Below are positions 30,688 through 44,312 of a stretch of 64,000 nt of DNA, piece after piece. Under the pieces are notes generated by a model that was given only the letters and a program-made list of their open reading frames with translations, had not been told where the DNA came from and searched no databases. A program made the translations under genes and the position numbers. The stretch's first letter is position 1. Each line of letters opens with the position of its first letter. The stretch is from an uncultured Chromatiales bacterium (lineage in GTDB: Bacteria > Pseudomonadota > Gammaproteobacteria > S012-40): assembly GCA_964442745.1 (NCBI GenBank), contig CAYUAI010000001.1, positions 69,175 through 133,174 on the forward strand, given 5' to 3'.

Positions 30688-32454
30688 TTACGACACGGCT
30701 TGTTCACCGAACTGCCAACGGACGGCTTCCCGATAGGCGACATGATGTGTCAACAAATCGTGGTGTGTTCCTTGACTCATACTACCATCGTCATTCAGAT
30801 AAATAATATAATCTGCCGCCCGTATCGAAGCATAACGATGTGCAATAATAATCGTTGTTCGCTGATTAGATAATTGATGAATAACATTGATAATTTTTTT
30901 TTCTGTTTGGCTATCTAGTGCAGAACTCACTTCATCGAGCACCAAAATTTTTGGATCTCGCAAAAATACTTGTGCCAAGGAAAATCGCTGCATTTGCCCG
31001 GTTGACATAAACTGACCACGATCACCGATCAGCGTATCTAACCCAAGTGACCACTGTTGAATAAATTCCCAACAGTGACTCATTTCACAAGCTTGCACTA
31101 GCTCTTGTTCGGAGGCATTAGGTTTGGCAAGGAGAAGATTCTCCCGTACTGTCTCATAAATAATCACCGGACCTTGCCACACAATCGCAATATGTTTGCG
31201 AATCGACTCAATACTCACCGCCTGCAGATCTTGCCCATCAATACAAATCGTTCCTGGACTTGGATCATAAAATCGCATCAGCAAATGAGCCAAGGTTGTC
31301 TTACCAACACCACTGCGACCCACAATCGCAACCGTTTTTCCTCCAGCGATAGTGAAATCTAAATGACGAAACAACGGCTCACATTCATCATAAGCAAACG
31401 TCACATCGCTAAAGGTAATGCTACCTTGAGTCACCTTTAAAGGTTGAAGCACACACGTATCATTGACAATGGATGAGGTCACCTTAAAAGGTTCGATAAC
31501 ACGATGCGCCGCCGCTAAATCAGCTTGCGCTTGAAAAGGGGCCTGAGCAATACCACGGACTGGCACGGATGAATACCCTAAATACAATAAAAAACTGACC
31601 AAAGCCCCTAATGACAAGTCACCGGCCTGGATACTTTTGACACCGGCATAAATAACGATGAGTCCCACGAAATAAATAAGGAAAGAAAAACTCGATGAAA
31701 AAGCAACATCTAACCAGCGCTCTTTCATTGCCCATCGAAATGCCTGAGCAAAAGATTTTTCATGGCCGTCTTTGATTTGTTTGGCCGCATCAAATGCATT
31801 GATGCCTCGCAAATGTGTCAAGGTCTTTTCTTCGTAAGCGAGCAATGTCCCATTTTTTTTTAAAAACTGCGCGGCCGCTTGCTTTTTCCGCTTTCCAAAA
31901 AACTGCTGATGCCAAAGAAAAAACGGCGATAACAGAAAGGCAAGCAACGCCAACTGCCAATCGATCCAAAATAACATCAAACAATAAAGTAATGCCGTCG
32001 TCAAATGAGAAACCAAAAAAAACGGTAGCTCAATAAATAAATTTTGGGTTTTATCCACATCGTGACTCATACGCGCCAGCAAATCCCCTTTGCTGTAACG
32101 ATTGGCTTGCATGATAGATAACACCATAAAACGAGCTAGGACTTCTTGCCGAACGCGTCCGACAAAGCGCAACCCAATCCAATTACTGGCTAATGTTGAC
32201 CAAAACAATAACACTTGATTAACTAATATGATAACGATTAGCGTCATCAATGAGACAACCAGTCGAGAGTAATCGCCAGACGCTAAGATATCAAACGGTA
32301 CCCCTAAATACCAAATAAGTGCCGTATTACTTACCGCAATACCAACAATCCCTAACAAAACTAAAAAGGCATAATTTTTATCAGGGAGCAAATACGGCTT
32401 AAAGTAAGAGAAGCTGTTAATGATGTCGGAGAAAAATATCAGTCTAGTCACCAT
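30688..32454 (-). CDS. ABC exporter, fused permease/ATPase (MsbA-like half transporter)
   Basis: 588 aa with a six-TM N-terminal domain followed by Walker A (GRSGVGKTT), the ABC signature (MSTGQMQR) and Walker B (ILVLDEVSSALD). Confidence 0.92.
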   Translation of the reverse strand: MVTRLIFFSDIINSFSYFKPYLLPDKNYAFLVLLGIVGIAVSNTALIWYLGVPFDILASGDYSRLVVSLMTLIVIILVNQVLLFWSTLASNWIGLRFVGRVRQEVLARFMVLSIMQANRYSKGDLLARMSHDVDKTQNLFIELPFFLVSHLTTALLYCLMLFWIDWQLALLAFLLSPFFLWHQQFFGKRKKQAAAQFLKKNGTLLAYEEKTLTHLRGINAFDAAKQIKDGHEKSFAQAFRWAMKERWLDVAFSSSFSFLIYFVGLIVIYAGVKSIQAGDLSLGALVSFLLYLGYSSVPVRGIAQAPFQAQADLAAAHRVIEPFKVTSSIVNDTCVLQPLKVTQGSITFSDVTFAYDECEPLFRHLDFTIAGGKTVAIVGRSGVGKTTLAHLLMRFYDPSPGTICIDGQDLQAVSIESIRKHIAIVWQGPVIIYETVRENLLLAKPNASEQELVQACEMSHCWEFIQQWSLGLDTLIGDRGQFMSTGQMQRFSLAQVFLRDPKILVLDEVSSALDSQTEKKIINVIHQLSNQRTTIIIAHRYASIRAADYIIYLNDDGSMSQGTHHDLLTHHVAYREAVRWQFGEQAVS

Positions 32455-33788: not shown

Positions 33789-35258
33789 ATGAACACATTA
33801 GAAACACTGAATTTTAATACGGCGTTCGCCCAACTTGGCGCCGCTTTTTCTGTGAGACAATCTCCCACGCCACTGAGCAATGCTAAACTTGGAGGATTCA
33901 ACGCCGCCGTTGCCTCGCTCATTGATTTATGTCCGCAAGAATCCAAGCGATTAGACTTTGTCGAATATTTTACTGGTGTTAAGCCATTGCCTGGCATCGA
34001 TCCGATCGCAACCTGTTATTCAGGTCACCAGTTCGGTCATTATGTTCCTCGGCTTGGCGATGGACGAGCTTTATTGCTCGGAGAGATTGTCAATCAGCGT
34101 GGCCAACGCTGGGAAATTCAAACCAAAGGATCCGGCCCCACCCCTTTCTCCCGACAAGGGGATGGTCGTGCCGTGTTAAGATCAAGCCTTCGAGAATATC
34201 TGTGCAGTGAAGCCATGCATGGCTTAGGCATCCCAACGACTCGGGCACTTTGCCTCATCCATAGTGATACCCCCGTCTATCGGGAAACCATCGAAACGGG
34301 CGCGTTATTAGTCCGAGTGGCGCCGAGTCATGTACGCTTTGGCTCTTTTGAATATTTTTTTTATACGGATCAGTACCATCACCTGCAAACCTTAGTAGAT
34401 TACCTCATTGGTGCTCATTATCCAGAACTCCCTGAAAATGAAAATAAATATTTGGCACTACTGGAGTCTATTGTATCAAAAACAGCCGGCTTGATCGCAA
34501 AATGGCAAGCGGTGGGGTTTTGTCATGGCGTGATGAATACCGACAATATGTCCATGCTGGGACTCACCTTAGATTATGGCCCCTTCGGATTTATTGATCA
34601 ATATGACCCCGAGTTTATTTGCAATCATTCCGATCACACAGGCCGCTATGCATTTAATCAACAACCCACCATTGGCTTGTGGAATCTCACGGCATTAGCT
34701 CAATCGCTAACCCCATTCCTTGACATAGAACAAGCCAAGTCAGCCCTCGCCCAGTATGAAACCCATTACATGGCCGCATATAGCCAACAAATGCATCACA
34801 AACTCGGCTTACAGGAAACGACACCAGAGACCGCCGCATTACTCAATAAGCTATTAACATTGCTCGCAAAAAATCAAGTCGATTATAGCTATTTTTTCCG
34901 TCAACTGAGTCAATATGGCACGGAACAATTACCCCTTGCCACCGCCTTGCATGATTTATTTATTGATCGGGAGAATTTTCACCAATGGATTATCAACTAC
35001 CAAGCTCAACTCCGCCACGAAAACCAAGCGGACCCATTACGTTTGCAAGCAATGAATCAAATAAACCCTAAATATGTGCTGAGAAATTATCTGGCTCAAA
35101 TGGCAATCAGTGCAGCACAAAACAACAACGATTTTACGGTGATGGAAGATATTTTAAAAGTAGTCAGTGAACCGTTCCTTGAGCATCCAACACTTGATCA
35201 CTATGCGGCGTTACCACCCGCCTGGGCAACCGCGATCGAAGTGAGTTGTTCCTCGTAA
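33789..35258 (+). CDS. selO: Protein adenylyltransferase SelO (YdiU/UPF0061)
   Basis: 489 aa with a pseudokinase-fold SelO pattern (CYSGHQFGHYVPRLGDGRALLLGE, GVMNTDNMSMLGLTLDYGPFGF). Confidence 0.93.
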   Translation: MNTLETLNFNTAFAQLGAAFSVRQSPTPLSNAKLGGFNAAVASLIDLCPQESKRLDFVEYFTGVKPLPGIDPIATCYSGHQFGHYVPRLGDGRALLLGEIVNQRGQRWEIQTKGSGPTPFSRQGDGRAVLRSSLREYLCSEAMHGLGIPTTRALCLIHSDTPVYRETIETGALLVRVAPSHVRFGSFEYFFYTDQYHHLQTLVDYLIGAHYPELPENENKYLALLESIVSKTAGLIAKWQAVGFCHGVMNTDNMSMLGLTLDYGPFGFIDQYDPEFICNHSDHTGRYAFNQQPTIGLWNLTALAQSLTPFLDIEQAKSALAQYETHYMAAYSQQMHHKLGLQETTPETAALLNKLLTLLAKNQVDYSYFFRQLSQYGTEQLPLATALHDLFIDRENFHQWIINYQAQLRHENQADPLRLQAMNQINPKYVLRNYLAQMAISAAQNNNDFTVMEDILKVVSEPFLEHPTLDHYAALPPAWATAIEVSCSS

Positions 35259-35481: not shown

Positions 35482-36723
35482 ATGCCAATTAAACAAACCA
35501 TCAGCGCACTTGTAATGACGGCCATTATTGCAGGTTGCAGTGAATCTCAATCAACCCTATCGAAACAAACATCAACGAATAGTAAACAACGCAACCAATC
35601 CGTCATGTTGCTCGCCGAAGAAAAAGGGGACCCCATTAATAACATCGACCCAACAGCAAGCCCTAGGGATTCCATGGCGATGGCAAGCAAAACCGCCATA
35701 TCAGATGCAGCCTATGCGGCAAAAGTGTCTCAAATTCGCAACCGCTCAGCAAACAGCAGCACAGTAACCCCTGCAAACACTGGCGAAACTCAAGTGGTGC
35801 AACACATTGACTATCGTGCCGGAATAATCCAATCTTATAGCACCTTCGAATATCAACTTAGTCAACGCACACGTCGCTTACGCTACATCACACCGGGCAC
35901 CGATGGGATATGGTTCAATAGTGATGATGAAATTGGCAGTTATGTTGAATTTAACGCATTAAAAAATGGCATTCAAACCAATTCGATTCTCTACACTGGC
36001 GCCGGCCCCGATCTCATCTGGCTGACAGAAGATGATTTAGTGCGCTTTTACCGCACAGACGCTTCAGATTCAGCAGACGGGGCCATTGGTAGCGCGGCTT
36101 ATGTGAAACCAGGTATTGATGCCGAATGGTTCACCAGCGATGACGAACTGCGCTGGACCACCGCACAAACCACGAATGCGGATGGGGCCGAGGAATGGAT
36201 TCAATACAGTGACCCAGGTGCGGACGGCGATTGGTTTACCAGTGAGGATAATCTCGTCGGCCATTTTTCCATCCAAACATTTAATACTCAAGGCCTATCA
36301 GACCAACATACCTTTTACCGAAGTCCAGGCCCTGATCTGATCCGCTTCACCGCCGATGACGCCGTCAGTTACTATCATCAATATTTTTATAATGCTGAAA
36401 ACCTATTAAATGAGGTCATCCTTTTTCATGGTGGTCCCGGCCCTGATAACATCTATTTTACCGCCGACGATCGCATTGCTAACTGCTCAGCAATCAGCCA
36501 AAATGCCGATGGATCAGAAAACCAAACTGTCAGTTTTCGACCTGGAGCCGATGCCACTTGTTTTACCGCTGACGATGAAATTCGGCTCTACCATGTGCAC
36601 ACCTATGACTCAACCCAAGATCTTGTCGGCAGCAAAACATTTAGCAGTCCCGGGGCCGATAACGAATGGTTTACTGACGATGATATTATCACTAATGAAA
36701 ATACGTTTGCCCCAGTATCATAA
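35482..36723 (+). CDS. Lipoprotein with eight PG-x-D-x-x-[WF]-F-T-x-D-D repeats
   Basis: It has a lipobox (AIIAGC|S). The eight spaced repeats are PGTDGIWFNSDDE, AGPDLIWLTEDD, PGIDAEWFTSDDE, PGADGDWFTSEDN, PGPDLIRFTADDA, PGPDNIYFTADDR, PGADATCFTADDE and PGADNEWFTDDD. The RBS is strong (GAGGAGAGGGGT-ATG). Confidence 0.8.
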   Translation: MPIKQTISALVMTAIIAGCSESQSTLSKQTSTNSKQRNQSVMLLAEEKGDPINNIDPTASPRDSMAMASKTAISDAAYAAKVSQIRNRSANSSTVTPANTGETQVVQHIDYRAGIIQSYSTFEYQLSQRTRRLRYITPGTDGIWFNSDDEIGSYVEFNALKNGIQTNSILYTGAGPDLIWLTEDDLVRFYRTDASDSADGAIGSAAYVKPGIDAEWFTSDDELRWTTAQTTNADGAEEWIQYSDPGADGDWFTSEDNLVGHFSIQTFNTQGLSDQHTFYRSPGPDLIRFTADDAVSYYHQYFYNAENLLNEVILFHGGPGPDNIYFTADDRIANCSAISQNADGSENQTVSFRPGADATCFTADDEIRLYHVHTYDSTQDLVGSKTFSSPGADNEWFTDDDIITNENTFAPVS

Positions 36724-36876: not shown

Positions 36877-37302
36877 TTAATCTTCTAAGGTGACAATCTG
36901 CGGAAAATCTTTTGCATATTTTTGAATCCATTCCGCGGCGGCCTGCCCACCGCTCAACGCTCTCCCCTCCTCGATCAAAACCTCTCTTTTGTAATGCTCA
37001 ATGTGACAAACCTGCTCAATCATACGTGCTCGATAGGCATCATTTTTATCCAAGAGTTCAACACCTAGTTCAAAAAATTGGCTTAATTTTTTACACCACA
37101 CCACTCGACAGTGTGCTTCAAATGCAGGGGTACCAAAAGGAATTTTAATCAATAAAGGGGTACCTTCCTCAATATAGGAATTCGAATGAAATGATAAACC
37201 CCCTAAACTAATATTACTCAATTTATCGGTTTGACATTTCAATGAATCTTGAAACTCTACATCAATTGGGATATCTGAAGGATGCCGAATATATCTGCGC
37301 AT
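36877..37302 (-). CDS. Single-domain PilZ (c-di-GMP binding) protein
   Basis: 141 aa with canonical motifs: RRYIR at residues 2-6 and NISLGG at residues 30-35. Confidence 0.85.
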   Translation of the reverse strand: MRRYIRHPSDIPIDVEFQDSLKCQTDKLSNISLGGLSFHSNSYIEEGTPLLIKIPFGTPAFEAHCRVVWCKKLSQFFELGVELLDKNDAYRARMIEQVCHIEHYKREVLIEEGRALSGGQAAAEWIQKYAKDFPQIVTLED

Positions 37303-37339
37303 TATACCGCCCTCCTTGTTAATGATCGTTAGCTATAAC

Positions 37340-37361
37340 CATACTCAATGCTTTGAGTATG
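37340..37361. promoter_or_regulatory. Perfect palindrome CATACTCAA-TGCT-TTGAGTATG (candidate operator)
   Basis: 9+4+9 inverted repeat, 38 nt upstream of the PilZ ORF start at 37302. It shares the ATACTCA/TGAGTAT half-sites with 20512-20532. A degenerate version, TATACTCA-AG-TAAGTATA, lies at 38452-38469. Confidence 0.45.
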
Positions 37362-37754
37362 CTGGGAATAGAAAATAAATGGCTTTAGCCTTTGCCTGTT
37401 TATCACTATGTACCATAATCAATAAAGGTACTGCATCACCAACCCACCACACAGCCTAAACAAAATGCGGCCGCTCAACCCGAATCTGGCAAAGCGATGT
37501 AACGATTGAGTCAATTACACCAACGACAAGCAGACAACATAAATAAGTGATTTAATTCTCACGTCTAAACTAGTCCCCTATTTATAATTTTATACCATAT
37601 ACTAATAAAAACCTAACATCCTCACTGCGAGCTCCTAATGCAAAGTTTTCATTCAGCATAAAAAGTATTGATGCATGTGGCATAAACTATCACTTTTGCA
37701 TCTGACCGGATGTGAAGTGTGAAACCCAAAAACCAATACTGTAAATTATATCAG

Positions 37755-37945
37755 TGATTAATTTCAGAGAAAAATAGACAGGTAACATGGACTAAGCGTA
37801 GCGAATCCACGAGAAACAAGCCGCGAAAAAAAATGAGTGCACCCTTGGCCTTGTCATCATTCAATGCCACACTGGCACATCACATCAAGTAACTCATTGC
37901 TCATTGCTGATGTGGATTCGCTACACGGAGAAAAAATTTAAAACA
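37755..37945. mobile_element. MITE-like element (family 1), copy B (right arm partly deleted)
   Basis: It aligns with 5431-5625 by eye at roughly 80-85% identity. A 45-nt core, AATGAGTGCACCCTTGGCCTTGTCATCATTCAATGCCACACTGGC (37832-37876), differs at one position. The inner stem CGTAGCGAATCCAC / GTGGATTCGCTAC is retained. Confidence 0.7.
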
Positions 37946-38792
37946 AGTATTCGTCTTTAGATGCGATAAACAACGCCGATATTGAGCCAATTCAATGCGG
38001 GGTGATTGTCATCGATTTTACTTTTTGAGTGTTATTAGCCTCACCAAAACCTTCCGCCCAAGTCAGTTATTAATCATCAAGGCAACACTTATCGCAAGAT
38101 ATATTCCTTAGCCAATAAATAATCTCCTGCACGGAGAAGCCTGGCGACAGCAAACGCCCTATCGCACGATATGTAATGAAAAACAATCACTCGCAAAAAA
38201 ACTTAAATCAATTTTTAACCCAAACGGTGCAAAACAAGCCCGTCTTGTATAATTTTTAGCACCGATACCAATGCTATCGTATCCCGTTGATAGAAAAATA
38301 AATCTCAAATAATCAATCTGGTAGAACCATTTAAATCTAAGCTACGGCCGTCAAAAACATAGACTATTTTCATCGGTGAAAGCCGCTGAGTCATGCACCA
38401 AGCCATCCTCACCCTCATTTCCAAACTTCATACCTGCACTCGTTACTACTATATACTCAAGTAAGTATACCTTTCGCGTAGGTATTAGCATACAATAGCA
38501 ATGTTTATTCAACGATAGCAGCTCATCAGCAACCTTCGATGGAAAAGCAGCGGCGGTATCCAACAACCCCAGCTAACGACTTTTACCACAATCAGCGAAA
38601 CGGCATCAGTTTGTTTGCGCAGCGAACCAAATGGGAGAAATTCAATCACGGTGACAAATATAGTCACTTTTTTTATGTGACAAAATTAACTAACATATAC
38701 CTTCTTATTGCTTTTTTCACTGACCTTTATCACTAAACTTGACACCTTCAGCAAATAGACTAAACAAAGTAAAACAACGATATGGAATTTGA

Positions 38793-39248
38793 GTGAAAAA
38801 GTCTCGGCATTTCAACAAAAAAATTAATCTACTACTCGGAGTCATTTTACTGAGCGCGTTGAGTATTGTTATTCCTGGAATCGCTCATCCCAGCAACACT
38901 GTCATTATTAATGCCTCCGTTCCTCAAACTGAACTCAGTAAAAGTACCCTGCAAGCGATCTTCGGCATGCGTTTGCGAAAATGGCCAAATGGAGCACCTA
39001 TCAAGGTATTTATCTTAAGCGATGAGAACCCCTTACACATCCAATTTTGTAAACTCATATTGAATGCTTTTCCACACCAGCTTAAGCGGGCCTGGAATCG
39101 TTTGGTTTATTCAGGCACAGGACAAGCCCCCATTGAAGTGGCTTCAACGGAACAAATGCTAGCGCGCATTGCGACCACTTCGGGTGCCATCGGGTATATT
39201 GACAGGAGTTTATTAAATGACCAGGTTCGGTCTATACAAATCAAATAA
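38793..39248 (+). CDS. Secreted PstS/PBP-like-2 fragment protein (about one lobe of a phosphate-type binding protein)
   Basis: 151 aa with a GTG start and a signal peptide. It has hallmarks of the PstS-type fold (LQAIFGMRLRKWPNG, TSGAIGYID) but is only about half the length of a full binding protein. Confidence 0.6.
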   Translation: MKKSRHFNKKINLLLGVILLSALSIVIPGIAHPSNTVIINASVPQTELSKSTLQAIFGMRLRKWPNGAPIKVFILSDENPLHIQFCKLILNAFPHQLKRAWNRLVYSGTGQAPIEVASTEQMLARIATTSGAIGYIDRSLLNDQVRSIQIK

Positions 39249-40446
39249 CAAATCACTCCTGCTTGGATTTATTGCCGTATGTGGAAGCTTTATGGCATCC
39301 ACCGCCAATTGTTTGGCGATCAACTTGACCGACACCATTCAAATTCACGGCTTTGCCAGCCAAACGCTGATTCGCACCTCGAAAAATAATTTCTTTGGCG
39401 ATAGTGACAGCGGCGGTGGTAGCTTAGACTTTCGAGAAATTGGTCTAAACGGCTCCATGCAAATCACCGCTGACTTACATCTTTTTGGTCAACTCATTTC
39501 ACGGCGTGCCGGACAAAACGATGATGGAGATATTCAACTTGACTATGGCGTTATCGACTATAATTTCTACTCTCAAGCAAACTCAAGAGCCTCCCTCCGC
39601 CTCGGCCGTATTAAAGTGCCTTACGGATTTTATAATGAAACACGCGACGTGCCCGTCACGCGTCCAAGCGTGTTTCTCCCCCAATCAATTTACTTTGAGC
39701 GCAGTCGAAACCTGACATTATCCGCAGACAGTTTGTTATTGGCCAGCGCTTATCGTACTAACGCCGGAGAAATCTCCTTTGAATTTGGCGGCGGCTCCCC
39801 CAATGTGGATGATACCAACATCGAACATGCTATATTGGGCAAAGATTTGCCAGGGAAATTGCGCGAAGACATCTCTTATTCCGGCAGAATACAATATCAG
39901 CAAAACAATGAACAATATCGTGTCTCACTAACTCATTCCCAACTCAATATAAAATATAAACAAGCCGGTCAAGCCAATAAATACGGACCTGGAAAAATCA
40001 AATTTACCCCATGGATTGCCTCACTGCAAATTAACGACGAGTTTTGGAGCATTACCATGGAATACGCTCGACGAAAATTCAACCGAAATGGTTTTAACGA
40101 TACTGGTCTCGATCGAATTACGACAGGAGAAAGTTACTATATACAGGGACGCTACCGATTATTGAAAAACCTAGAAGCCATTTTTCGTTACGACGTGTTA
40201 TACCACGATATCAAAGATCGCAGCGGCACTAAAAATGCTTTGGATAGTAGCAAACCTCGCCATAGTTTTTTCGCCAAAGACTGGACCCTTGGCTTAAGTT
40301 GGAGCATCAATCGATATATCCAACTGCGCAGTGAAATTCACTTTATCGACGGAACGGGCTGGCTGCCACAAAGCGATAACTCTGACGCCAACGAAACTCA
40401 ACGCCGCTGGCGATTATTCGCGCTCTCGGCCACTTACTCTTTTTAA
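39217..40446 (+). CDS. Predicted outer-membrane beta-barrel protein
   Basis: 409 aa. The ATG has an AGGAG RBS and overlaps the upstream gene by 32 nt. The signal peptide ends ANCLA. Alternating amphipathic strands are rich in Y/G/R, and the C-terminus is ...LSATYSF, with the terminal Phe typical of OMPs. Confidence 0.6.
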   Translation: MTRFGLYKSNNKSLLLGFIAVCGSFMASTANCLAINLTDTIQIHGFASQTLIRTSKNNFFGDSDSGGGSLDFREIGLNGSMQITADLHLFGQLISRRAGQNDDGDIQLDYGVIDYNFYSQANSRASLRLGRIKVPYGFYNETRDVPVTRPSVFLPQSIYFERSRNLTLSADSLLLASAYRTNAGEISFEFGGGSPNVDDTNIEHAILGKDLPGKLREDISYSGRIQYQQNNEQYRVSLTHSQLNIKYKQAGQANKYGPGKIKFTPWIASLQINDEFWSITMEYARRKFNRNGFNDTGLDRITTGESYYIQGRYRLLKNLEAIFRYDVLYHDIKDRSGTKNALDSSKPRHSFFAKDWTLGLSWSINRYIQLRSEIHFIDGTGWLPQSDNSDANETQRRWRLFALSATYSF

Positions 40447-40631
40447 TCCGAACCTGATGGAAATAACACCCATGATAAACATCAGTCATGACAGACTTTC
40501 TAGCCCGCTTCAATGTGCTAGGATGGGTTAATATCGTTTTGATTTCGGTCTGAATTTAAGCGTAGCTAACACTTTGCCTAATTTATTGAAGTGAAAAACT
40601 TTAAACGACTAAGCCACCTGCCAAATTATTT

Positions 40632-43535
40632 ATGATAGAAAGGAAACTAAAAAAATTATCAATACCCCCATACTTAAGCCTTAAATGGAAAGCCGTTTTA
40701 ATTCTGGGTTTATTATTACTGTGTATTAACGCCGTGTTTCCCATCATTAATTACACCGGCTTAAAATCACAATTCATCGAGCAGCGTAAACAACAACATA
40801 TACGTTTTAACATTGAAATCACCGAACTCATCCAACAGGCTTTTATTAGCTTACAAAAAGTTGGCGGTATATTGCCTTCCCTGGAAGGCATGAATAAAGC
40901 ACTTAATATTTTTGATGCAGAATCCCTATTTGAGCACTTTAATGTTCATTGGTACCCATTACAAATCGAACAAAACATTGATACCATTGGTTTTTTTAAT
41001 GCCCATGGCAAACTGGTTGCTGATTGGGGACAAACCAATCATTTACAAAACCAACCAGAGCTTGCCCTGCTCGCTAAAAAAGCCATCGATCTAGAGCAAC
41101 CCTTGCCATTACTCGACTGCCGTGATAGCTGTATCCAGTTTGCCGTCGTACCGTTATTAAATGATGGCTTGACTGTCGGTGCCGCGATCATTGGCTCGTC
41201 ATTAGCCGATGCCATATTAAGCTTCAAACAGTTTACCGACGTTGATGTCGGTATTTTAGTAAAGACCAATCAAAATAATGCGACGCACCCCATCAATCAT
41301 AGCGACTTAACCCAAGCCAACTGGCGCTCTCGCATTACCGCATTAACCGACCTTTCAAAAAATATTCCGTTGATCCGTATCGCCGCGGAACAAACATCAT
41401 CCATTCACGATACACGTAGAGGCGTCGTAGTCCAATATGAGCAACGCGCTTTCGAAATCAAAGCCACCCGCTTTGAAAACTTCGCCATTATTGGAGAAGG
41501 CTATATTGTCACCATTGCCGATGTCACCGATTATTTAGCAGAAATTGATGCGGCAGCGGTGCAAAATATAGGAACAGGCATTATCGGACTACTGTTATCT
41601 TCATCAGCGCTGCTATTGATTCTTTGGCAACCTCTCACACGACTCAAAAATACTGCCTCTAACTTACCATTGCTGGCAGAAAGAGCCTTTAACGACGCAC
41701 GAATCAACATTAAAAAATCTCACCATCGATCTTATTTAAAAGATGAAATTGATTTGATGAGCCAAACCGCCATTGACCTTTCCTACCAATTAGAAGACTT
41801 GGAAAATGAAGTCCAAGCGCAAACAAGTTCGCTGGCAGATAAAGTCCAGGAACTTGCCAGTGAAAGAGACTTCATCAAACATTTATTTGATAATGCGCAA
41901 GTCATTATTATTACCCAAGACAAATTGGGTAATATCTTGCTAATCAATGACTATGGGTCAAAAACCACCGGTTATACCAACGAAGACCTGACGGGTAAAA
42001 GTTTTTCAAAAACACTGAGCAATATTAATAACATTTCCAGCCACAATCGCTTATTAACCGAAGTGGCACTGGGTATTCGCCAGCAAATTCAACTGGAAAC
42101 CACCGTGACTTGTAAACATGGCGCAAAGCGTAATGTGGTTTGGTTACATTCCCATTTAAACGCCTCAAGCAATAAAGATCCGGTGATGTTATCCGTTGGA
42201 CTTGACATTACTGAACGAAAAGAAGCTGAGCACCGCCTCGCTTGGCTCGCGGACCATGATCCACTCACTGGACTTTTCAATCGGCGCCGTTTACAAGAAG
42301 AAATTGAGAGAATCCTAGAGCAAGGTAAGCGATACAAACACACCGGTGCAATTTTTTTCATTGACCTTGATCAATTTAAATTTATCAACGATACCAGTGG
42401 ACATCAGGCCGGTGACACGCTGCTCATTGAAGTGTCACAGAAATTAAAAAAACTGCTGCGAAGCTCAGATATCCTCGCACGATTGGGCGGCGATGAATTC
42501 ACCATTGTTATTCCAGAAATTGATCAAGAAGACACCATCAACGTTGCGCAAAAAATCAATGAAGAATTAGACAATATCGAACTCTCCATTGGAAAAAGAA
42601 GACACAAGGTCTCCGCCAGCATTGGCATTGCCCTCTTTCCTGAACATGGCCAAGATACCAAGAACCTATTATCGAATGCGGATCTTGCGATGTATCGCGC
42701 TAAAGATGCCGGACGCGGTCGATGGCACTTATTCACCAACGATGAATTTGATAAAGAACGATTGCATGCACACGTATATTGGAAGCAGCGTATTGAAAAT
42801 GCACTCGTTGAAAATCGTTTTACATTATTGTTTCAGCCTATTTTGGACATCACAACCGATCATATATCACATTATGAAGTCCTTCTCAGAATGCAAGACA
42901 GTCAAGGTAATCTATTAGCCCCGGGCATGTTCATTGAGGTAGCAGAGCGCACCGGACTCATACGCGCCATCGACCATATGGTTCTGCATCAAGCATTCAT
43001 TAAAATTGCGGAATTCAATTTATCCTCAAGCATACATACTTTTTCGGTTAACCTTTCGGCCCATTCGTTTAATGACTCAGAGTTATTGCCTCTAATCAAA
43101 AAATTATTAAAACAGACACAGCTACCACCCGAGCATATCATTTTTGAAGTCACCGAAACGGCCGCACTTGCCGATCTCACCGGTTCACGCACTTTAATGC
43201 ATGCCATTAAAAAATTAGGCTGCCAATTCGCATTGGATGATTTTGGTGTCGGCTTTTCGTCTTTTAACTATTTAAAAGAACTTCCCTTTGATTACATAAA
43301 AATTGACGGTTCTTTTATTCGTCAAATTGCGCAAAATTATGATGATCAAATACTCGTTAAAGCCTTATGCGATGTGGCCAAAGGTTTCGGCAAAAAAACC
43401 ATTGCCGAGTTCGTGGAAACGGAAGAGACACTGAATATTTTACGAGAATACCAAGTGGATTATGCGCAAGGTTATCATATTGGCACACCCTCTGCTTCTC
43501 TAGTAACAAGTGACGAGTTTTCATTAAATTATTAG
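40632..43535 (+). CDS. Membrane sensor diguanylate cyclase/phosphodiesterase (periplasmic domain-PAS-GGDEF-EAL)
   Basis: 967 aa with two TM segments flanking a periplasmic region of about 270 aa, then a coiled coil and a PAS domain. The GGDEF domain has an RSSD I-site 5 residues before GGDEF. The EAL domain carries YEVLLRM, EVTET, DDFGVGFSS, KIDGSF, AEFVETEE and AQGYHIG. Confidence 0.95.
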   Translation: MIERKLKKLSIPPYLSLKWKAVLILGLLLLCINAVFPIINYTGLKSQFIEQRKQQHIRFNIEITELIQQAFISLQKVGGILPSLEGMNKALNIFDAESLFEHFNVHWYPLQIEQNIDTIGFFNAHGKLVADWGQTNHLQNQPELALLAKKAIDLEQPLPLLDCRDSCIQFAVVPLLNDGLTVGAAIIGSSLADAILSFKQFTDVDVGILVKTNQNNATHPINHSDLTQANWRSRITALTDLSKNIPLIRIAAEQTSSIHDTRRGVVVQYEQRAFEIKATRFENFAIIGEGYIVTIADVTDYLAEIDAAAVQNIGTGIIGLLLSSSALLLILWQPLTRLKNTASNLPLLAERAFNDARINIKKSHHRSYLKDEIDLMSQTAIDLSYQLEDLENEVQAQTSSLADKVQELASERDFIKHLFDNAQVIIITQDKLGNILLINDYGSKTTGYTNEDLTGKSFSKTLSNINNISSHNRLLTEVALGIRQQIQLETTVTCKHGAKRNVVWLHSHLNASSNKDPVMLSVGLDITERKEAEHRLAWLADHDPLTGLFNRRRLQEEIERILEQGKRYKHTGAIFFIDLDQFKFINDTSGHQAGDTLLIEVSQKLKKLLRSSDILARLGGDEFTIVIPEIDQEDTINVAQKINEELDNIELSIGKRRHKVSASIGIALFPEHGQDTKNLLSNADLAMYRAKDAGRGRWHLFTNDEFDKERLHAHVYWKQRIENALVENRFTLLFQPILDITTDHISHYEVLLRMQDSQGNLLAPGMFIEVAERTGLIRAIDHMVLHQAFIKIAEFNLSSSIHTFSVNLSAHSFNDSELLPLIKKLLKQTQLPPEHIIFEVTETAALADLTGSRTLMHAIKKLGCQFALDDFGVGFSSFNYLKELPFDYIKIDGSFIRQIAQNYDDQILVKALCDVAKGFGKKTIAEFVETEETLNILREYQVDYAQGYHIGTPSASLVTSDEFSLNY

Positions 43536-43589
43536 AGACACATCGCAACCATACCTAACAACGGTTGTGAACAACGCAAAGGGTTAGAG

Positions 43590-44312
43590 ATGAACACTGC
43601 AATGATAAATAGAATTCAAATGAAACACAGCAATTTGTCGTTACAAGCACTGGACAAACGAATCACGACATTACCACTTAAGCGTAATTTAAGCTCAATC
43701 CCAACATCCTATTTCCCCGGTAAAAAACAATACCGCATTAGCTCAGTGCATAACCAAAAAGATCGTGACGATGTTTATCGTTTAGTGCATGATGCTTACG
43801 TTGAGCAAGGCTATGCGGAACCACAAAAAGAAGGCAAACTCGTTTATTTTGAAAACTTAGATAATTTAAAAGAAACGACCATTTTAATTGCACACGACGG
43901 TGACAAACCCATTGGCACCGTCTCTGTCACCTTAGATAATAAACACAGCGTACCCATGGATGGAGCATTCATACAAGAATATGAGGCTATTCGTCAAGAA
44001 AATCGAAAAATTGCTATCGTGTGGCGTCTTGTGGTTCACAAAGAATATCGATCAAGCCATAAACTCGTTATCGAGTTAATAAAAAATGCAATCATTGTGG
44101 CTTCTTATGCCGGTGCCACCACCAATGTGTCAGTACTTAACCAAATTCATGAAAGCTTCTATCAAAAAATTTTTGGTATGCGAGTCATTGCCCGCAGCAA
44201 TCAACTTATCAGCCTGAGTAATTTGCCTGCCGCCTTAATGCGATGTGACAAAGAAACCTTCCCTAAAAAATGGCTCGATCACACCCAACCTTCCTGTCGT
44301 TTTGTATCTTAA
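43590..44312 (+). CDS. GNAT-superfamily acyltransferase, FeeM / N-acyl amino acid synthase-like
   Basis: 240 aa. The N-terminal pattern (KDRDDVYRLVHDAYVEQGYAEPQ) and central block (IVWRLVVHKEYRSS) resemble the autoinducer-synthase-like N-acyl synthase family (FeeM, TIGR03694-type). This rests on motif recognition only. Confidence 0.5.
   Translation: MNTAMINRIQMKHSNLSLQALDKRITTLPLKRNLSSIPTSYFPGKKQYRISSVHNQKDRDDVYRLVHDAYVEQGYAEPQKEGKLVYFENLDNLKETTILIAHDGDKPIGTVSVTLDNKHSVPMDGAFIQEYEAIRQENRKIAIVWRLVVHKEYRSSHKLVIELIKNAIIVASYAGATTNVSVLNQIHESFYQKIFGMRVIARSNQLISLSNLPAALMRCDKETFPKKWLDHTQPSCRFVS

Follow-up and report, generated by a model that had tools for sequence, protein, structure and literature searches.

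In the ScrABC operon of Vibrio parahaemolyticus the genes for a signal synthase and a periplasmic binding protein (PBP) are followed by that for a GGDEF-EAL protein which sits in the membrane and has a periplasmic domain; binding protein and signal together reportedly switch the enzyme between making and degrading cyclic di-GMP (c-di-GMP), with a surface or a biofilm lifestyle as the output. In the NspS-MbaA system of Vibrio cholerae a GGDEF-EAL protein is likewise modulated by a periplasmic binding protein, NspS, which is of full size and binds polyamines, and whose operon is not known to contain a synthase or a porin. RpfF/RpfR of Burkholderia cenocepacia pairs the synthase gene for a lipid-like signal, BDSF, with the neighbouring gene for a PAS-GGDEF-EAL receptor, a cytoplasmic protein whose PAS domain is the one that binds the fatty acid. 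Finally, YfiBNR (TpbB) of Pseudomonas and Escherichia coli is built in three tiers, with one protein in the outer membrane, a second, small one in the periplasm and a c-di-GMP enzyme in the inner membrane. Here we analyse a block of four genes from a 64,000-nucleotide stretch of DNA of an uncultured Chromatiales bacterium (contig CAYUAI010000001.1; the whole stretch is referred to as ‘the window’ throughout), which encode a secreted single-lobe PstS-like protein (‘half-PBP’), a porin, a c-di-GMP enzyme with a periplasmic sensory domain (‘sensor’) and a FeeM-type acyltransferase of the GNAT fold.

While the sequence-only reading of this locus knew of no characterised system of its composition, the four systems above follow the same logic, so that the block has precedents; none of them shares the half-PBP, the porin, the dCache_3 input domain or the GNAT synthase. 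With ScrABC the cassette represented by our block has in common the order synthase, binding protein and GGDEF-EAL sensor with a periplasmic domain, and a periplasmic binding-protein gene adjoining a GGDEF-EAL sensor gene in one operon, as in ScrABC and NspS-MbaA, is found in about all of the loci that we analysed. However, ScrA is of the aminotransferase type rather than a GNAT, ScrB has both lobes of a binding protein, no porin is known to belong to the system and the periplasmic domain is not dCache_3: the relationship in sequence is limited to GGDEF-EAL. As in RpfF/RpfR, the gene for a putative synthase of lipid-like products lies close to that of a PAS-GGDEF-EAL protein, and as proposed for our cassette, NspS acts on the GGDEF-EAL protein from the periplasm. 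YfiBNR differs in having an OmpA/Pal-like lipoprotein, YfiB, in place of a porin, a periplasmic protein, YfiR, that has no relationship to PBPs, and an enzyme, YfiN, that carries GGDEF only; no synthase is known to take part. Searches of the open literature, which did not extend to Craig 2011 itself, turned up no account of the four-gene cassette or its receptor trio. What appears to be new here is the four-gene cassette; the link between N-acyl amino acid synthases (NAS) and exosortases has already been published, and the kind of device, in which a signal synthase is combined with a c-di-GMP switch that a binding protein assists, is known.

We consider it probable that the block is the window lineage’s version of a widespread four-gene operon, in which a synthase is joined to an envelope receptor that includes a c-di-GMP enzyme. 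A profile of the porin family, run against species-representative genomes, retrieved at least 591 matching stretches, and the loci analysed are the best 80 of these, among which the highest porin identity to the window is 48%. The half-PBP, porin and sensor genes are adjacent in essentially all 80 loci, and these come from several phyla: the half-PBP gene lies directly 5′ of the porin gene and a gene for a sensor of ~970 aa directly 3′ of it wherever the contig allows, the median gap between porin and sensor being 11 nt. The carriers comprise Nitrosomonas, Nitrosospira, Nitrosovibrio, Nitrospirota, Nitrotoga, Desulfobacterales and Thermodesulfobacteriota as well as Accumulibacter, Competibacteraceae, Methylococcales, Halomonas, Cellvibrionaceae, Sulfuriferula and others. 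In the window the porin start lies inside the half-PBP gene and has an AGGAG Shine-Dalgarno sequence there; in 35 of 81 loci the overlap is again exactly 32 nt, with an in-frame porin start, and among the remaining loci many have a candidate in-frame porin start 20–38 nt ahead of the half-PBP stop codon. These overlaps fit a conserved translational coupling of half-PBP and porin and, together with the short gaps, agree with an operon.

The synthase is tied to this trio from both sides. A cluster of ~266-aa acyltransferases is represented in 61 of 82 loci, mostly directly 5′ of the half-PBP gene, and all 42 members tested belong to TIGR03694, the PEP-CTERM/exosortase system-associated acyltransferase, with scores of up to 267 bits. 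As judged by sensitive profiles, a NAS gene lies no more than 10 kb away in 45 of the 54 loci with full flanks, and 54 of 66 TIGR03694 matches are located directly upstream. When metagenome contigs were queried in the reverse direction, all 47 evaluable NAS loci had the order NAS, half-PBP, porin and then, where the contig reaches, sensor, a count biased to the cassette-linked NAS clade by its query, an alignment of 12 NAS sequences. The grouping lies far beyond chance, since it recurs in at least 130 independent loci. From the window alone it had been proposed that the four genes form an envelope-spanning module around c-di-GMP turnover and an acyl-amino-acid-type synthase; co-occurrence on this scale across related genomes argues that the module is real and co-inherited, and the cassette is more general than had been realised.

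While the slot for the synthase is retained, its occupant and position vary. A FeeM-type gene takes the place of TIGR03694 in the window, in its relatives L003 and L004 (L numbers denote retrieved loci), in three read-archive contigs from close relatives, and in L056 and L067; it follows the sensor gene in the window, L003 and L056, and stands between porin and sensor in L067. In the Halomonas loci L064 and L069 it is a TIGR03694 gene that follows the sensor, at the same position as the FeeM-type gene of the window. The slot is thus filled by two distant paralogue types and at different positions, and we take the slot itself to be conserved. The output of the sensor can be exchanged as well: in four loci a hybrid histidine kinase is found instead, with half-PBP, porin and dCache_3 input retained, and two of the four also retain the synthase.

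Table 1. The four genes of the block, with positions in the window.
Product	Positions	Strand	Basis
Half-PBP: secreted 151-aa single-lobe PstS-like protein	38793-39248	+	GTG start; signal peptide, PBP_like_2, AlphaFold2 (AF2)/Foldseek
Porin: predicted 409-aa 16-strand outer-membrane protein	39217-40446	+	AF2 model, Foldseek
Sensor: 967-aa inner-membrane dCache_3-PAS-GGDEF-EAL protein	40632-43535	+	Pfam domains
FeeM-type GNAT, 240 aa, N-acyl amino acid synthase family	43590-44312	+	Pfam FeeM PF21926

The list of open reading frames places all four genes exactly where the sequence-only reading had put them (Table 1), with the spacings that it had given – a half-PBP/porin overlap of 32 nt followed by gaps of 185 and 54 nt – and its domain calls all hold in Pfam and NCBIfam scans of the four proteins. 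Measured against L003, a metagenomic relative 85% identical to the window and the nearest one available, the ratio of nonsynonymous to synonymous substitution rates (dN/dS) is 0.06–0.13 for the four genes and for a nearby PilZ gene: all five are under purifying selection.

Several loci carry variations on the cassette. Two or three tandem TIGR03694 genes precede the half-PBP gene in L017 (6968-9440), L078, L082, L105, L106 and L108, which suggests several acyl products per receptor. A gene for an S-adenosylmethionine-dependent methyltransferase stands between porin and sensor, beside the synthase, in L012 (11240-12025, minus strand) and in four other gammaproteobacterial loci, and in L011 (6430-8856; Candidatus Manganitrophaceae) the porin gene is duplicated in tandem.

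The sensor starts with a transmembrane segment, followed by the periplasmic dCache_3 domain (residues ~46–312), a second transmembrane segment, a linker, PAS, GGDEF with its I-site, and EAL. The hydrophobic segments lie at about residues 21–41 and 313–335, and between them dCache_3 (PF14827) matches residues 63–262 with 62.2 bits, against a cut-off of 25.7; PAS is matched as well, and GGDEF and EAL reach 166 and 241 bits, respectively. Residues 610–623, RSSDILARLGGDEF, read RSSD-x5-GGDEF, i.e. an RxxD I-site five residues before the active site, and this pattern is found in nearly all of 67 members of the sensor family. The EAL catalytic set (YEVLLR, SVNLS, FEVTE, DDFGVG, KIDGSF, EFVET, AQGYH) is complete and conserved in the family. 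Thus, as far as motifs can tell, both c-di-GMP domains appear intact family-wide, as had been read from the window’s sequence, and the dN/dS of the sensor against L003 is 0.06. No sequence relative of the periplasmic domain was found in the PDB. Across 28 diverse members of the family, hybrid-kinase variants included, the domain has an invariant CxxxC (C163 and C167; 41118-41132 in the window), which could form a disulfide with a structural role or else serve as a redox or metal site, and W107, E155, P157 and P174 are invariant or nearly so in the same 28 proteins.

As judged by structure modelling, the half-PBP is a conserved single lobe of the PstS fold. Its signal peptide ends in PGIA, before HPS, which leaves a mature domain of ~115 aa. 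The only Pfam match is PBP_like_2, at 25.1 bits against a cut-off of 27 and over profile positions 95–187 of 267, and TIGR04505 is matched below threshold (16.5 bits, cut-off 175). In the AF2 model (predicted local distance difference test, pLDDT, 88) ~120 residues superpose on one lobe of the PstS structures 4exl and 1twy with a root-mean-square deviation of 2.2–2.6 Å (Foldseek; TM-score normalised to the target 0.25–0.40). The two-lobe Venus-flytrap architecture of PstS, which takes ~250–340 aa, is not present: lobe I is absent. Homologues of matching length share the invariant motifs FGMRLRxW, WxRxxxSGTGxxP and GAIGY. A profile search of 1.84 billion cluster representatives (clusters at 50% identity) retrieved 351 clusters with a threshold of E≤1e-30, a number that rises to 2,270 with E≤1e-10, and the best 150 are nearly all 130–220 aa long, with no fusions. 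The sequence-only reading had allowed for a decayed pstS remnant; this is ruled out by the conserved length and motifs, the hundreds of clusters and a dN/dS of 0.12 against L003, which together point to a conserved family under purifying selection.

The name PstS should not, however, be taken to mean phosphate sensing. We had considered that R103...S107-G108-T of the half-PBP could correspond to R135/S139-G140-T141 of E. coli PstS, and dropped this candidate after a profile alignment to 1twy. In that alignment the canonical lobe-II anion motif, TREASSGT, pairs with a non-conserved segment of the family, LsDesplH, whereas the family’s own invariant motif, R103...S107-G108-T-G110, lies elsewhere; going by this sequence alignment, in which the canonical motif falls on non-conserved residues, we do not infer phosphate binding. 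No ATP-binding cassette (ABC) transporter is found among the annotated neighbour clusters over 82 loci, several of the 30 commonest clusters lacking annotation. Around the block in the window there is no Pst-type permease or ATPase either, as the sequence-only reading had observed; the sole ABC gene nearby (30688-32454, minus strand) is of the fused exporter type.

The 409-aa protein is, according to its AF2 model, a porin of the general 16-strand fold: the signal peptide, the strands, an L3 loop and the C-terminal aromatic residue (...TYSF) are all in place. The model (pLDDT 84, predicted template modelling score 0.80) has 16 strands and no plug; strands 5 and 6 are connected by a helical loop of the L3 type (residues 134–168). 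It supports the outer-membrane barrel that had been predicted from the sequence. Its top Foldseek matches in the PDB are DcaP, Omp32, OmpT and OmpF/C, with E-values of ~1e-12 to 1e-13. The window porin has no match in Pfam (E≤0.1) or NCBIfam, and 10 of 35 homologues match Porin_O_P (PF07396) weakly, the best at 1e-5. Membership of OprP/OprO was considered and is not supported: there is no Pfam match and no PDB sequence match, and OprP/OprO are outside the top 50 structural matches. Compared with PstS and OprP/OprO, the block shares the fold of one PstS lobe and the 16-strand architecture, but half of the PBP is missing, there is no pstCAB and the porin is closest to general porins. The L3-type loop (39616-39720, residues ~134–168; GRxKxPxGFYNxTRDV...PQSIYFxRxRN) is the most conserved segment of the family and also the least confidently modelled one (pLDDT 50–63), as if it depended on a partner or a ligand.

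FeeM, an N-acyl-tyrosine synthase from soil environmental DNA (PDB 2G0B), is encoded in a fatty-acid enol-ester biosynthetic cluster and is not known to have a sensor beside it. The window GNAT matches the Pfam family FeeM (PF21926) over its full length, profile positions 1–158 of 158, with 114 bits against a cut-off of 27, and FeeM (2g0b) is its only PDB sequence match, albeit a weak one (phmmer E=8e-5, 25.6 bits). These matches indicate an enzyme of the FeeM/NAS type rather than an ordinary acetyltransferase, in line with the likeness to N-acyl amino acid synthases that had been pointed out from the sequence. Membership of TIGR03694, the synthase family of the same cassette in most relatives, is rejected: the score of 16.3 bits is far below the cut-off of 111.95 and hhalign gives a probability of 40% against the family alignment. 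The window enzyme, encoded after the sensor, is a FeeM-type paralogue. No remnant of a TIGR03694 gene was found upstream of the block in the window. FeeM has a GNAT fold related to that of N-acyl homoserine lactone (AHL) synthases and a structural relationship to autoinducer synthases, and an active-site Glu on strand 4 is the putative catalytic residue of FeeM-type synthases (PMC4897644). Two independent alignments place Ile143 of the window enzyme where FeeM (LAEVVQF) and TIGR03694 (AEISRF) have this Glu; among the cassette-linked FeeM-type relatives, found by phmmer within the retrieved loci, the position is Val in L056 and Ala in L067. The Arg beside it, R146, is conserved, and dN/dS against L003 is 0.09. 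The protein may start at Met11, since 230-aa versions are on record.

The cassette belongs to an association, unrecognised in the sequence-only reading, that has been published for NAS genes, namely their link to PEP-CTERM/exosortase systems (Craig 2011, as far as it is summarised in PMC7293339). In Nitrosomonas eutropha it directly follows the genes for PrsR (TIGR02915), the exosortase-A-associated acyl-CoA ligase TIGR03098 and the exosortase-A-associated decarboxylase TIGR03099, all scoring above cut-off, and homologues of these exosortase-system neighbours occur in 11–21 of 82 loci. In Methylomonas LW13 a mutant in a NAS belonging to a PEP-CTERM/exosortase system has lost a polysaccharide band (PMC11072679), and N-acyl tyrosines alter biofilm composition (PMC7293339). 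In L014 (19-1947) and four other Nitrosomonas loci a penicillin-amidase (Ntn-hydrolase) gene, of a family that includes AHL acylases, lies ~9.5 kb upstream of the porin gene; this may be mere lineage synteny.

The circuit that we infer, from its ligand and protein contacts to the direction of flow and the downstream target, would run as follows. The synthase would make an amphiphilic acylated amine or amino acid, which would leave the cell or re-enter the periplasm through or alongside the porin. The receptor would consist of the 16-strand porin, the translationally coupled single-lobe PstS-fold protein and the dCache_3-PAS-GGDEF-EAL sensor: the half-PBP, either alone or docked on the porin or on the dCache_3 domain, would bind the acyl product and, once loaded, shift the sensor between c-di-GMP synthesis and hydrolysis. 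The level of c-di-GMP would then set the production of exopolysaccharide, of a PEP-CTERM-protein matrix or of flocs. While control of matrix or biofilm formation is probable, we lean only with hesitation towards the acyl amino acid as the signal that is sensed; the comparative data suit this role at least as well as that of an output. We favour a synthase-receptor circuit because synthase and input module are linked whichever of the two one starts from, because this linkage survives both a swap of the output domain and the replacement of the synthase by a distant paralogue, and because the order synthase, binding protein, sensor mirrors, by analogy, that of ScrABC. A further reason is that the identity matrix of NAS correlates with that of the periplasmic sensor domain at r=0.91, compared to 0.67 for the cytoplasmic part of the sensor. 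This correlation is suggestive only.

A number of points weigh against our reading. Shared descent and the lower variance of conserved cytoplasmic domains can yield matrix correlations of this kind. A barrel of the general-porin fold is not the usual route for molecules as hydrophobic as long-chain acyl amino acids. Nine of the 54 cassettes have no synthase within 10 kb, and a motif scan of the 64-kb window, together with annotation of part of it, brought to light neither PEP-CTERM nor exosortase genes. The FeeM-like protein of the window, in which Ile replaces the canonical catalytic Glu, may for this reason carry out a different chemistry. Finally, metagenomic NAS-PilZ fusions suggest that c-di-GMP acts on NAS (PMC4897644), i.e. 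that the acyl product lies on the output side. These fusions and the nine synthase-free cassettes favour an alternative that follows the direction proposed in the sequence-only reading, with the acyl amino acid as an output. Here the trio of porin, half-PBP and dCache_3 domain would respond to something from outside or from the envelope that has no relation to the synthase – an anion, a nutrient or, via CxxxC, the redox state – and the sensor would set c-di-GMP, while the acyl amino acid would act as a surfactant or matrix lipid that is co-expressed or controlled by c-di-GMP. We hold this to be possible but doubtful. The CxxxC is indeed invariant, and in the window lineage a gene 1.5 kb upstream of the block, though outside the conserved cassette, codes for a PilZ protein whose RxxxR and NxSxxG motifs are intact. 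The PstS ancestry of the half-PBP and the weak matches of some porin homologues to a phosphate-porin family speak for this alternative as well, but lobe I is absent and, in the alignment, the place of the canonical lobe-II anion motif is taken by non-conserved residues. Neither does an output role sit well with synthase linkage being kept in some hybrid-kinase variants that have no c-di-GMP output, nor with the usual place of the synthase gene at the head of the operon, which is where synthase-receptor pairs have it too.

Two other explanations dispense with a sensed acyl signal. One is an envelope-stress relay resembling YfiBNR, in which the half-PBP would inhibit or activate the sensor and the porin would sequester or release the half-PBP depending on the state of the outer membrane; there would be no diffusible ligand, and the synthase would merely modify the envelope. 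Half-PBP and porin, with their conserved translational coupling, may form a stoichiometric complex, the poorly modelled but highly conserved porin loop 134–168 behaves as a partner-dependent element would, and a single PBP lobe, unlike a Venus-flytrap protein, is unable to close on a ligand. We nevertheless judge the relay improbable: dCache domains typically bind small molecules, Pfam and NCBIfam scans reveal no homology to YfiB or YfiR, and the two-way, obligate linkage to the synthase is left unexplained. The other explanation, more unlikely still, is an export or anchoring apparatus, in which half-PBP and porin would move an acyl amino acid, an acylated PEP-CTERM protein or an exopolysaccharide precursor across the periplasm and the outer membrane while the sensor monitors the flux. 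The exosortase-associated neighbours in Nitrosomonas and other loci, and the published NAS-exosortase association in its summarised form, would suit such an apparatus. However, the window and many other loci are not beside exosortase genes, the annotated neighbour clusters contain no conserved inner-membrane transporter, and the best-conserved partner is a 970-aa dual-domain c-di-GMP enzyme, which points to signalling.

If the synthase-receptor circuit is taken one step further, long-chain N-acyl amino acids or acyl amides would be the autoinducers of a widespread but unrecognised quorum-sensing-like system: perceived by a dedicated envelope receptor (porin, single-lobe PstS-fold protein and dCache_3 sensor), read out as c-di-GMP, or by a phosphorelay in the Desulfobacterota variants, and, in nitrifiers, polyphosphate accumulators and methanotrophs, turning on the formation of flocs and of a PEP-CTERM/exopolysaccharide matrix. 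We put this forward as a speculation that may well prove wrong. Were it true, the single-lobe protein would represent a new use of the PBP fold, with a site completed, for example, by the porin loop or by the dCache domain; the stand-alone single-lobe family and the unmodelled porin family are structurally interesting by themselves. The gene for the exosortase-linked synthase almost always heads an operon with a complete envelope receptor that ends in a c-di-GMP enzyme, and the cassette thus offers a concrete, testable circuit with candidate receptors, and a point of entry into the as yet unexplained biology of N-acyl amino acid synthases linked to exosortases. Among its carriers, Nitrosomonas, Nitrosospira, Nitrospira, Nitrotoga, Accumulibacter and Competibacter dominate nitrification and phosphorus removal in wastewater treatment, systems in which floc and biofilm formation is an engineered trait.

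The annotated neighbours of the block in the window are housekeeping genes (leuC, selO, hrpA, mazG and relA). The 1.5-kb region upstream of the half-PBP gene (37303-38792) had been described as gene-less, but it is not empty. Positions 37962-38275 (minus strand) hold the frame-shifted N-terminal remnant, the first ~130 codons, of a 624-aa beta-lactamase-fold gene, which is intact in L003 (7228-9102, minus strand) and has lost ~1.5 kb in the window. No known RNA or riboswitch was detected with Rfam at E≤1 in this region, in the gaps or around the block, and a promoter and terminator scan was uninformative, the counts being at or below shuffled expectation. Immediately beyond the region lies the gene for the stand-alone PilZ protein (36877-37302, minus strand; 141 aa), in which RRYIR and NISLGG correspond to RxxxR and NxSxxG. 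Its dN/dS against the close relative is 0.09, and it may be a local c-di-GMP effector; in other lineages the gene is not part of the cassette. The SelO gene (33789-35258, plus strand) is missing at the matching place in L003, an indel of ~1.5 kb. Between the SelO and PilZ genes, a predicted lipoprotein of 413 aa (35482-36723, plus strand) has no match in Pfam or NCBIfam; it has the lipobox ...IIAGC and repeated PG(A/P)D..WFT.DD units, and is conserved in L003.

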